The position numbers and the translations under genes were made by a program. A DNA stretch of 64,000 nucleotides from Oxalobacteraceae bacterium (GTDB lineage: Bacteria; Pseudomonadota; Gammaproteobacteria; Burkholderiales; Burkholderiaceae_D). Where the stretch lies: positions 3,007 to 67,006 of the forward strand of contig JAIXXN010000062.1 of the NCBI GenBank assembly GCA_027490725.1, given 5' to 3'. The notes under the pieces were generated by a model. It saw nothing but the letters and a program-made list of their open reading frames with translations, searched no databases and was not told where the DNA came from. This document shows, piece by piece, positions 19,276 to 28,098 of this stretch (within the stretch, counting starts at the first letter, position 1; the number at the start of each line of letters is the position of its first letter).

Positions 19276-22200
19276 ATGACTTCGATCGTTAATTTATTTA
19301 CAACAGACCAGATTGCCAGCCTCACTACGCTGCAAATGGGTCTGCTGACGACCGAAGATATGAGCGTGCTCAGCTCGGAACAGCTCGCGGTACTCAACAC
19401 CGCGCAGGTGCGCGCCCTGAATACCCTGCAACTGAACGCCCTGACGGTCGACGCTCTGAGCGGGCTGAGCACTACGAATATTCCCGCCATGTCGACCCTG
19501 CAGGTGGCGGCACTGCGCAGCGACCTGTTCAGCGCACTCAGCACCGACCAGCTGGTTGCCCTGAGTACCCGCGAAATGGCGGCGCTCACCACCCACCAGC
19601 TCAATCTGCTGAACACCACCCAGATGGCGGCGCTGGAAACGGTGGATCTGCGCGCCCTGACGACCTTGCAACTGGCCGCCTTGGGCTCCGATCAGGCAGC
19701 CAGTCTGACCACCGACCAGCTGGGCATCCTCGCGTCCCAGCAATTGCGCGCTTTTAATACCAGCGCCATCCAGGCATTTAGCACCGATCAGATCGTCTCG
19801 CTCAGCACGGCCAATCTGGCGCAACTGACCAGCACCCAGCTCAACGTCCTGACGGGCGACCAGATCAATTCGATCAGAACCGAGCAGATCGCCGGCCTGA
19901 GTGCCCCCCAGGTTGCCAGCCTCAGCACCGACCTGCTGGCCACCCTGAGCAGCGACCAGAGCGGCGCACTGGAAAGCCGCGACCTGATCGGCCTGAACAG
20001 CGCACAAATCCGGGCCTTCGGCGCCACCCAGCTGGCCGGGCTGAATACCGAACAGATGCGCGCGCTGCGTAGCCAGGCGATTGCCGCCCTCAGCACCGAC
20101 CAGTTACCCCTGTTCAGCACCGACCAGTTCAATGCCCTGAGCAGTCTGGCGGCCCTGAATTCGGCCCAGATGGGCGCGCTCAATACGGATCAGCTGAACG
20201 CGCTGACCACCCGCACCATCACCAGTCTGGCCAGCAGCCAGCTGGCGGCGCTGAACAGCGATCAGGTGGCCGCTTTTAATACCGATCAGGTGATTGCCCT
20301 GTCGACCCAGCAGTTCGCCAGCCTCGCTACCACCATGCTGGCGGCACTGGTCTCGGACCAGATGCTGGCCATTGAAACGCGCGATATCGCCGTGCTGAGC
20401 ACCGGCCAGATCCGCGTGCTGAGCTCCGACCAGCTGGTGGTACTCAGTACCGAACAGGTGGCCGCCATCAGCAGCAGCGATACCGGCGCCCTGCTGGGTG
20501 AACAATTGGCCAGTCTGAGCACCGACCAGATCAACGCACTGCGCACCCTGAGTCCGCTCAACTCGGCACAAATCCAGGCCCTCACCACCGCTCAGGTCGT
20601 GAACTTGCAGAGCCGTACCATCATCGCGCTGAGCAGCCAGCAACTCGGCGCCCTGACGGGCGAACAGTTGCAATCGCTGAGCACCGACCAGATCATCTGG
20701 CTGACGGCCAGCCAGGTCGCCAGCCTGAGCGGCGACACCCTGAATGCCCTCACCAGCGACCAGATCGAAGCCTTCGAAACGCGCGACATCGCCGCACTGC
20801 GTTCGGCCCAGATCAGCCGCCTGATCACGGAACAACTGGTGGTCTTGCTCACCGACCAGTTTGCAGCCCTCAACAGCAGTGCCATTGGCGCCCTCAGCAC
20901 CGACCAGATCAGCGTGCTGACCACCGACCAGTTGAACGCGCTGGCCTCGCTGGTCGCACTCTCCAGCAAACAGATCGGTTCGTTCACCACTGACCAGCTG
21001 CAATCGCTGTCGACCCGCAATCTGGCCACGCTGGCCAGTGCCCAGTTGCGCGTGCTCGGCTCCGACCAGATCCAGTCGCTCACCACCGACCAGATCGTCG
21101 CCCTGAACGGCGCCCAATTCCGTGGCCTCAATTCCGTGGCGATTGCCGCCCTCACCTCGGACCAGTTGCTGGCCATTGAAACTCGCGATATCGCCGCGCT
21201 CGACTCTAGCCAGGTCAACAAACTGCTGAGCGAACAGATCGCCGTGCTCAGCACCGAACAGATTGCTGCCCTCAGCTCGGCCGATACCGCAGCGCTGGTC
21301 AGTGACCAGATCGTTGCCCTGAACAGCGATCAGATCGATGCACTGCGCTACCTGACTGCGCTCAGCACGCGCCAGATCAAGGCGCTCACCACCGACCAGA
21401 TCAGTACCCTCACACTGCCCGATCTGACCTCGCTGACGACGCGCCAGTTTGCCTCCTTCACCAGCGACCAGTTGCAGGCGCTCAACACCGATCAGATCGT
21501 GGCGCTCAACACCGCCCAGATCGCTGCACTCAGCACCAGCGCGATCGCCTATCTGTCGACCGATGCGATTGCAGCGATCGAAACGCGCGACATCCGCGCC
21601 TTGCGCACCGCCCAGATCGCCCAGCTCAGCACCTTGCAACTGGGTGCGCTAGGTACGGCACAGCTGGCCGCCTTTACCACCGCCGAACTGCGCTCGCTGC
21701 TGAGCGACCAGCTGTCGGCCCTGAGTAGCGATCAGCTGGGCGCGTTTGCTTCGCTCAGCCCGATCTCGACGCGCCAGTTGGCGGGCCTGACGACGGCGCA
21801 GATTGCCGATCTGTCGACCAATAGCTTCCTGACCCTGCTGACCAGCCAGCTGGCCGCCTTTAATACCGATCAGGCCGCCGCCATCAGCAGCGATCAGGTC
21901 TACGCCATGACCACCGAGCAAGTGCGGGCCCTGAGTTCGGTGGCGATTGCCGCCCTCGGCACCGACCGGATTGCCGCCATGCGCAACATCGATCTGGTGT
22001 CGCTCACGTCGCGCCAGTTGTCGGCGCTGACCAGCAACCAGTTGCTCGCCCTGAGTACCCAGCAGCTGCGGGTGCTGCCGTCGGCAAATCTGGCGGCCCT
22101 GACACTGCGCCAGATTGCCGGCCTGAATAGTGAACAGATCGATGCGCTGGTCACGCTGGCCGCGCTGACCTCGCGCCAGCTGGCAGCCTTCAGCACCGAC

Positions 22201-28098: not shown

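Follow-up and report, generated by a model that had tools for sequence, protein, structure and literature searches.

A giant ALTTAQ-repeat gene between fliR and flgL in an Oxalobacteraceae flagellar cluster: a candidate type I secretion substrate with a Ser-Pro SPM-like domain

What does a gene of 8.8 kb encode when it lies between fliR and flgL, in the middle of a flagellar cluster, and by which route would its product leave the cell? The question is raised by a stretch of 64,000 nucleotides from an Oxalobacteraceae bacterium (GenBank assembly GCA_027490725.1, contig JAIXXN010000062.1, positions 3,007 to 67,006), hereafter the window, in which a single open reading frame (ORF), here called the giant gene, encodes a highly repetitive protein. 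The original prediction was that this giant protein is either a secreted fibre or adhesin, or a novel structural component of the flagellum such as a tether or sheath. The first of these stands as the best reading, given the FrpC-type Ca2+ module, the HlyB and HlyD genes beside paralogues and the occurrence of the same repeats in two-partner secretion (TPS) and RTX exoproteins. We consider it fairly probable, judging from sequence, that motile cells make the protein as a giant extracellular, adhesin-like fibre, exported by a type I secretion system (T1SS) and serving, for instance, in attachment.

Architecture of the giant protein

The protein consists of a long repeat region followed by a Ca2+-binding domain and a short tail:

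19276..28098, + strand: giant ORF, 2,940 amino acids, ~306 kDa, acidic isoelectric point (pI) of ~4.4, one Cys, without Sec signal peptide
19276..27312, + strand: ALTTAQ-repeat region, residues 1-2679; Pfam PF20080, predicted alpha-solenoid
27313..27822, + strand: SPM-like Ca2+-binding domain, residues 2680-2849; phmmer match to PDB 6sjw/6sjx, AlphaFold 2 (AF2) model and Foldseek
27823..28095, + strand: C-terminal tail, residues 2850-2940; Ala/Ser/Gln-rich, ending in ...GILAAK, presumed T1SS signal

The repeats had been described as resembling no known family. This must be withdrawn, since the protein matches Pfam PF20080, the "ALTTAQ repeat", with 1429.9 bits (E = 0) over 97 stretches (the gathering score is 26.4 bits), and its C-terminal domain belongs to a second family, PF26745. 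The repeats begin at residue 9 and follow a strict period of eight amino acids, with consensus [TS][TS]-D-Q-[IL]-x-A-L, for a total of ~330 octads. Sixteen octads and one 6-residue unit form a superrepeat of 134 amino acids (402 nt), which is present in ~20 copies.

An AF2 model of two superrepeats, computed on an alignment built from the giant protein's own superrepeats, presents a mean predicted local distance difference test score (pLDDT) of 92.9, with each octad forming one helix of 5-6 residues and turns of 2-3 residues between helices. A solenoid of such short helices is thus the high-confidence prediction for the repeat region. When the model was compared with the PDB, the best results were generic alpha-solenoids (mesothelin, a designed armadillo protein and the HEAT repeats of PP2A), with template modelling (TM) scores of 0.34-0.38. 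The fold class of the modelled repeat is therefore clear, and it has no close solved relative. Structural homology to mesothelin or armadillo was rejected on the basis of these scores (TM ≤ 0.38), which indicate a resemblance only. A leucine-rich repeat reading was also rejected, given that the LRR_EndoS family of Pfam is matched at 28.3 bits, barely above its cut-off of 27.9 bits, and that the model is all-helical.

No Pfam domain other than ALTTAQ (e.g., an N-terminal retention module or Ig-like BIg extenders) was found in residues 1-2679, and no flagellin- or rod-type terminal domain was matched by Pfam in the giant protein. The GGxGxD motif of RTX proteins is absent throughout its length, with no match to PF00353, and an NCBIfam scan of the protein returned sub-threshold noise only.

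PF20080 is a sizeable family: clustered at 50% identity, the sequences from an exhaustive profile-free search give ~1,458 representatives, of which many have 2,000-5,000 residues. ALTTAQ repeats are also found in an exoprotein with ESPR, TPS and MBG domains, and in a protein with RTX, FG-GAP and Ig domains. They were seen, too, in RTX or Ig proteins that carry an SPM-like domain (P0280, P0248, P0253 and P0274 comprise examples of all these kinds). The repeat, found across several secretion contexts, is therefore a stalk module that different secreted surface proteins have in common. As for database names, NCBI often labels such proteins "heme utilization protein", a name that appears baseless, and JGI sometimes uses "trimeric autotransporter adhesin" or "Rof", which nothing found favours either.

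The gene itself presents the properties initially described for it, namely an uninterrupted ORF of 8.8 kb on the strand of fliLMNOPQR, running from ATG 19276 to the TAG stop codon at 28096-28098, and a base composition like that of its flanks (GC content of 63-65% versus 60-67%). The longest open frame in a mechanical ORF call extends from TTG 19219 to 28098 on the + strand. The likely start is nevertheless ATG 19276, as orthologues align from that Met and a ribosome-binding site lies 8 nt upstream:

19262..19267, + strand: ribosome-binding site GGGAGA, 8 nt 5' of the ATG; GGAG kept in the orthologue alignment

With the fliR stop codon at 19189-19191, the gap to this ATG is of 84 nt, so that both the coordinates and the orthologue alignment agree with the start and the ribosome-binding site first proposed.

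A gene of such length and repetitiveness could have arisen in assembly, or be an expanded repeat that, like a pseudogene, yields no product, and with short reads from the same organism the assembly does break at this point (a 5.3-kb Logan contig ends beside flgL). An exact-sequence look-up of the giant protein gave no match, and FlgL matched this contig only. Yet the frame is open over 8.8 kb, the repeat copies are merely 60-80% identical at the DNA level, and collinear orthologues of similar length (2,117-3,570 amino acids) exist in independent assemblies, including a single contig of 7.3 Mb. The repeat divergence and the independent assemblies make an artefact very unlikely, and we regard this alternative as so improbable as to be negligible.

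The Ser-Pro SPM-like domain

The last 261 residues are unlike the repeats, and comprise the SPM-like domain and a tail of 91 residues. The domain matches PDB 6sjw/6sjx with a phmmer E-value of 2.4e-35, and its AF2 model aligns with 6SJW/6SJX in Foldseek with a TM score of 0.81-0.82 and 41-42% identity (0.82 and 41% for 6SJX). PF26745 is carried both by close homologues and by fragments of FrpC, which identifies PF26745 as the SPM family.

In FrpC, the bond between Asp414 and Pro415 is cleaved: the side chain of the Asp reacts with the carbonyl of that same residue, forming an anhydride that is then linked to a lysine, a reaction known as "clip-and-link" (PMC7078468). The mutant D414A presents neither cleavage nor coupling (PMC7846742). 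The domain of the giant protein starts at the equivalent position, Pro2680, but the preceding residue is Ser2679 in place of Asp414, and Thr2741 stands in place of D478. Asp2841 (D579 in FrpC), Trp2714 (W451) and Trp2782 (W519) are kept, as are the EF-hand-like Ca2+ loops. In FrpC, D478 and D579 are ligands of the fifth Ca2+ site, and W451 and W519 form a stabilising pair.

The substitution before the Pro is not particular to this protein. Ser or Thr occupies the position in 62 of 62 related locus copies with an identifiable junction, in 100 of 100 ALTTAQ-linked database matches and in 35 of 37 SPM-bearing cluster representatives. Asp precedes the Pro in none of the ALTTAQ-linked sets, as opposed to 69 of 78 FrpC-type matches. 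Since Asp never occurs there, canonical clip-and-link is excluded, and the domain would be either a non-cleaving Ca2+ folding switch or the site of some other chemistry. Among the matches obtained with FrpC as query, 7 of 78 have Ser before the Pro (including P0184, P0186, P0215, P0218, P0221 and P0227), and thus the Ser-Pro variant may not be confined to ALTTAQ proteins.

The second option implies that the Ser/Thr-Pro SPM still cleaves, and perhaps links, once Ca2+ is bound, by a chemistry that involves no anhydride; hydrolysis of a strained X-Pro amide or an acyl shift through the Ser/Thr hydroxyl would be candidates. The outcome would be a rod of 279 kDa either freed from the secretion tail or covalently attached, which is compatible with a fibre made by motile cells and equally with a fibre gene that sits among flagellar genes by accident. 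In its favour, the SPM fold is retained together with the Pro, the Ca2+ loops, the two Trp residues and the equivalent of D579, and Ser or Thr precedes the Pro in more than 190 sequences, with the D478 equivalent co-varying to Ser or Thr. This non-random occurrence of Ser/Thr suggests selection at that position. However, the nucleophile of FrpC is the Asp side chain, whose loss in D414A abolishes cleavage, and the proposed fifth Ca2+ site lacks two of its three ligands. Self-processing of this kind is deemed improbable. A broader version, in which the Ser/Thr-Pro SPM is a second, undescribed form of Ca2+-triggered self-processing that releases or anchors a rod of fixed length made alongside the flagellum (e.g., a fibre for attachment at the pole, or a structure associated with the flagellum, in Duganella, Rugamonas and Janthinobacterium), is likewise improbable. 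The rod itself amounts to ~280 kDa, and its length would be of the order of 100 nm by a rough estimate.

The tail is predicted to form two helices, with low pLDDT at its end (AF2). Its last residues, G[IMF]LA[AS]K, are common to the copies found in flagellar loci and to paralogues linked to a T1SS.

Relatives, export and regulation

Related genes were sought by scanning one genome per species, and all counts below refer to the loci listed, at least 79, which belong mostly to Oxalobacteraceae (Duganella, Rugamonas, Massilia, Undibacterium, Janthinobacterium and Pseudoduganella), the remaining ones being from Comamonadaceae, Iodobacter, Methylobacter and various metagenome-assembled genomes (MAGs). 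The best listed matches, from Rugamonas and Duganella, are 64-65% identical in the C-terminal region, which places the species of the window outside the scanned set, and the FliP of the window is 96% identical to that of the same two genera. The giant protein is evolving faster than its flagellar neighbours.

In 14 of the 79 listed loci (L001-L013 and L016), the giant gene has fliP/Q/R upstream and/or flgL/K/J downstream, and those with both flanks on the contig present the fliR-gene-flgL order of the window. These flagellar-locus copies come from Duganella, Rugamonas, Janthinobacterium and two more distant MAGs, and form a single clade in a neighbour-joining tree of the SPM domain, while the FlgL encoded downstream is 59-89% identical to that of the window. 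The fliR-gene-flgL arrangement, for which a check across Burkholderiales had been suggested, is that of one clade, and the other 65 loci lie elsewhere. Within the clade, L002 and L004-L010 are collinear with the window protein over ~2,900 positions at 54-67% identity, from which it follows that length and repeat order have been preserved; L011, L012 and L016 present 43-47% identity, with a background of 43-46% between any two ALTTAQ proteins. The conserved syntenic position and the single clade also bear out the view of the gene as a resident of the locus and not a recent acquisition. In L009 ("Burkholderia sp. LMU1-1-1.1", which is close to Duganella judging by its flagellar proteins), an ORF of 692 amino acids with no Pfam or NCBIfam match (11103-13181) lies between the giant gene and flgL. 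The genome paper of Janthinobacterium/Duganella HH01 describes two flagellar clusters and does not describe the giant gene.

The 65 non-flagellar loci are paralogues, several of which are held by many of the genomes, and their neighbours point to the export route. According to a clustering of neighbouring ORFs, an HlyB-type ABC gene (C39-like, ABC_membrane and ABC_tran) is present in 22 paralogue loci, lying just downstream of the giant paralogue in the loci inspected, and an HlyD-family membrane-fusion gene is present in 18. The window copy has no adjacent ABC or membrane-fusion genes, and Pfam and NCBIfam scans found no such T1SS genes within the 64 kb. Flagellar-locus copies and T1SS-linked paralogues coexist in Rugamonas sp. 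A1-17 (L001/L025), D. violaceipulchra (L002/L015) and D. radicis (L004/L027), and the two groups have in common an N-terminus of the form M[TS]SIV..F[TS]TDQI followed by repeats. T1SS substrates are acidic and Cys-poor, with an uncleaved C-terminal signal and no N-terminal signal peptide; in the giant protein the pI is 4.4, there is a single Cys and no signal peptide precedes the repeats, and the tail would be a candidate for such a signal.

A TPR and GT41 glycosyltransferase gene, often accompanied by sugar-modifying enzymes, is found in 16 paralogue loci. GT41 (O-GlcNAc-transferase/HMW1C-like), a DegT aminotransferase and sugar epimerases/dehydratases flank many of the non-flagellar paralogues (L014:14729-16603 and 15 other loci, L032:18922-20175, L038:6268-7371, L035:8808-9866), and none occurs in the window. 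Given this proximity, the Ser/Thr-rich ALTTAQ fibres may be glycosylated.

The position of the gene, directly after fliPQR and conserved, could also be taken to mean that the protein is exported by the flagellar type III apparatus and forms a tether, sheath, hairs or matrix on the flagellum, and both the lack of a Sec signal and the lack of a T1SS in the window would fit. But paralogues at T1SS loci have the same N-terminus, in which nothing points to an export signal particular to the flagellum; both the Ca2+ module and the tail at the C-terminus belong to a T1SS-linked family; flagellin- or rod-type terminal domains and a dedicated chaperone gene are lacking; and no σ28 late promoter precedes the gene. 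Export by the flagellar apparatus is left without specific support and is very improbable. The part of the original prediction that proposed a novel flagellar component is not supported, on the same grounds, i.e., the absence of flagellar-type domains and an N-terminus like that of non-flagellar paralogues.

For a fibre exported by type I secretion, the following course is proposed. Transcription would probably occur by read-through from the class II fliL-R operon, in addition to the gene's own promoter. An HlyB/HlyD/TolC system encoded elsewhere in the genome would export the protein, rather than the flagellar apparatus. By analogy with RTX proteins (PMC3034196, PMC7078468), the unfolded chain would exit C-terminus first, and extracellular Ca2+ would fold the SPM-like domain, which would serve both to ratchet the chain outwards and to nucleate folding, as RTX blocks do in other substrates. 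According to the structural model, a long rod of short helices would next form by stacking of the octads. The result would be a fibre on motile cells, plausibly for attachment to surfaces, particles or other cells; that motile cells make it is suggested by the conserved location and length.

Whether the gene is expressed with the flagellum can be approached from its upstream region, which holds one promoter-like element:

19220..19255, + strand: promoter-like motif TGGTTTCCATGAGGCAAT-N7-GCGTATCATGG (σ70-type, TTTCCA-17-TATCAT), from consensus scan and conservation

The motif is kept in L001-L006, L008, L009, L011 and L016, where the surrounding intergenic DNA diverges; it is missing upstream of the paralogues and occurs once in the window. 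A consensus scan of the gap between fliR and the giant gene found no terminator-like site, and read-through from the fliLMNOPQR operon is therefore expected. Close matches to the σ28 consensus (TAAAGTTT-N11-GCCGATAA) are located at 264-290 (+) before fliD, 31564-31538 (-) before flgK and 40114-40140 (+) before flgM. The last of these falls inside the longest flgM ORF, and the real flgM start is thus probably downstream of 40104. A σ54 promoter was rejected for the giant gene: the motif has the GG-N10-GC spacing, with bases that are not kept in L006 and L016, and no σ54 site was found in any flagellar intergenic region of the window. When the intergenic regions were inspected by eye, no motif common to the giant gene and other flagellar promoters was noticed. 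Co-expression with the flagellum is plausible on this evidence.

These data also allow for a different history, in which the gene is a paralogue of a T1SS fibre that was placed in the flagellar cluster by accident and has been kept there by the stability of gene order, with its own promoter independent of flagellar regulators and no role in motility or flagellum-linked attachment. The private, conserved σ70-like motif speaks for it, as does the lack of σ28 and σ54 sites upstream while fliD, flgK and flgM have σ28 sites; most listed loci (65 of 79) are non-flagellar, and L009 tolerated the insertion of an unrelated gene of 692 amino acids beside the giant gene. Against it, the position is kept within one clade across Duganella, Rugamonas, Janthinobacterium and two distant MAGs, with FlgL identity down to 59%, length and repeat order are kept over ~2,900 amino acids, and read-through from the flagellar operon is expected. 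We consider this history unlikely, though it is the main rival reading.

Several points weigh against an attachment fibre made by motile cells and exported by a T1SS. A σ28 promoter was rejected for the giant gene, as the consensus sites precede fliD, flgK and flgM and none occurs here; given that the conserved motif is not of the σ28 type, co-regulation with the flagellum could be absent. Export in trans is an assumption, made because the window contains no T1SS genes. The tail is presumed to be a type I secretion signal, being a family-wide motif whose role is deduced from the gene neighbourhood only. The solenoid model derives from the protein's own superrepeats, and a literature search returned nothing relevant on ALTTAQ, PF20080 or PF26745, with no characterised family member in the literature searched.

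The flanking genes and the 3' end of the giant gene are as follows:

18349..19191, + strand: fliR, directly upstream, last gene of the fliLMNOPQR export-apparatus operon; Pfam Bac_export_1, E = 2e-70
28096..28176, no strand assigned: TAGGCCC/GGGCCTA heptamer arrays, detected by Tandem Repeats Finder; long hairpin by RNA folding
28226..28262, no strand assigned: bidirectional intrinsic terminator A8-GCCCCTG-(9 nt)-CAGGGGC-T6, common to the convergent flgL; sequence and fold
28287..29549, - strand: flgL (hook-filament junction protein), convergent downstream; Pfam Flagellin_N

The claim that the giant gene ends convergent to flgL at a bidirectional terminator is upheld by RNA folding at 28226-28262, a site that the consensus terminator scanner overlooked because its loop is of 9 nt. 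The folding z-score of the hairpin and terminator region between both genes is -7.3. The heptamer array (tandem TAGGCCC followed by inverted GGGCCTA) begins within the TAG that ends the giant gene, and it forms a hairpin of ~65 nt located 5' of the terminator, which may be an element of the repetitive extragenic palindromic type or a structure that stabilises the mRNA.

Pfam and NCBIfam scans agree with the initial statement that all other genes in 1-49092 are flagellar: fliD, fliS, probable fliT, fliK-like, flhB-C-like, ycgR, fliE-fliR, flgL-flgB, flgA/M/N, motBA, fliA, flhG-like, flhF, flhA and flhB. The region from 49 to 64 kb contains housekeeping genes and no secretion system. Some members deserve mention. 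The probable fliT, an ORF of 109 amino acids at 3479-3808 (+) between fliS and the fliK-like gene, was assigned by position alone. Two FliK-type hook-length genes are present (3823-5418 and 12672-14348), the first followed by a protein of 119 amino acids with only the FlhB C-terminal domain (TIGR00789 flhB_rel, 5408-5767) and a YcgR-type PilZ brake (5767-6525). The gene in flhG position, 43396-44193 (-), has no Pfam match at E = 1e-3 and a weak NCBIfam match to MinD (E = 4e-11, far below cut-off); its product is, on this sequence evidence, a divergent FlhG/MinD-like ATPase.

Comparison with known systems

Although the repeat family was already catalogued, its Ser/Thr-Pro SPM class, its octad-helix solenoid and its flagellar-cluster lineage appear to be real. 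If the proposed reading is true, there exists a sizeable family of type I secretion substrates without RTX repeats, which rely instead on a Ser/Thr-Pro SPM-like Ca2+ domain. Such a family would be relevant to the ratcheting of secretion and also to the SPM chemistry that is now applied to protein ligation (NeissLock). The 8-residue helical unit would be an unusually short solenoid repeat, without a close solved relative. One lineage, in turn, has remained between fliR and flgL in several genera and has kept its length; it would provide a concrete case, among environmental Oxalobacteraceae, in which a surface fibre that is not flagellar is linked genetically to the flagellar regulon.

In terms of fold, the modelled repeat has in common with mesothelin, armadillo and HEAT proteins a superhelix of stacked short helices, mesothelin being the best PDB match (E = 7e-6). 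It differs from them in its TM scores of 0.34-0.38, its identity of 14-16% and its unit of 8 residues, as opposed to 40 in ARM/HEAT. The giant protein is a direct member of the PF20080 proteins, yet others use the repeat in ESPR + TPS or RTX + FG-GAP + Ig contexts, and a single clade resides in the flagellar cluster.

With the FrpC/ApxIVA class, it has in common a homologous Ca2+ domain starting at the equivalent Pro and the context of a type I secretion family. The differences are the Ser-Pro junction, the Thr in place of D478, the lack of RTX nonapeptides, the location of the module at the extreme C-terminal end before the tail (mid-protein in the FrpC class), and an N-terminal cargo consisting of a helical repeat of 2,680 residues.

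The giant RTX adhesins (LapA, SiiE, MpIBP and FrhA) are likewise very large, acidic, Cys-poor and repetitive, with a C-terminal Ca2+ region and tail and with HlyB/HlyD-type export, the latter seen here in the paralogues. Their stalks consist of Ig-like beta-sandwiches, whereas that of the giant protein is made of 8-residue helical units; moreover, it has no RTX repeats and no detected retention module or ligand-binding domains, and its gene is physically within the flagellar cluster. For a link between a T1SS adhesin and the flagellar hierarchy, V. cholerae FrhA, the "flagellar-regulated hemagglutinin A", offers a precedent by name.

The giant protein lacks the defining traits of RTX proteins (nonapeptides), of RTX adhesins (Ig-like extenders and retention module) and of functional SPMs (Asp-Pro). 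By analogy, it would nonetheless work most like the giant T1SS adhesins, with a Ca2+ module of the FrpC/ApxIVA class.

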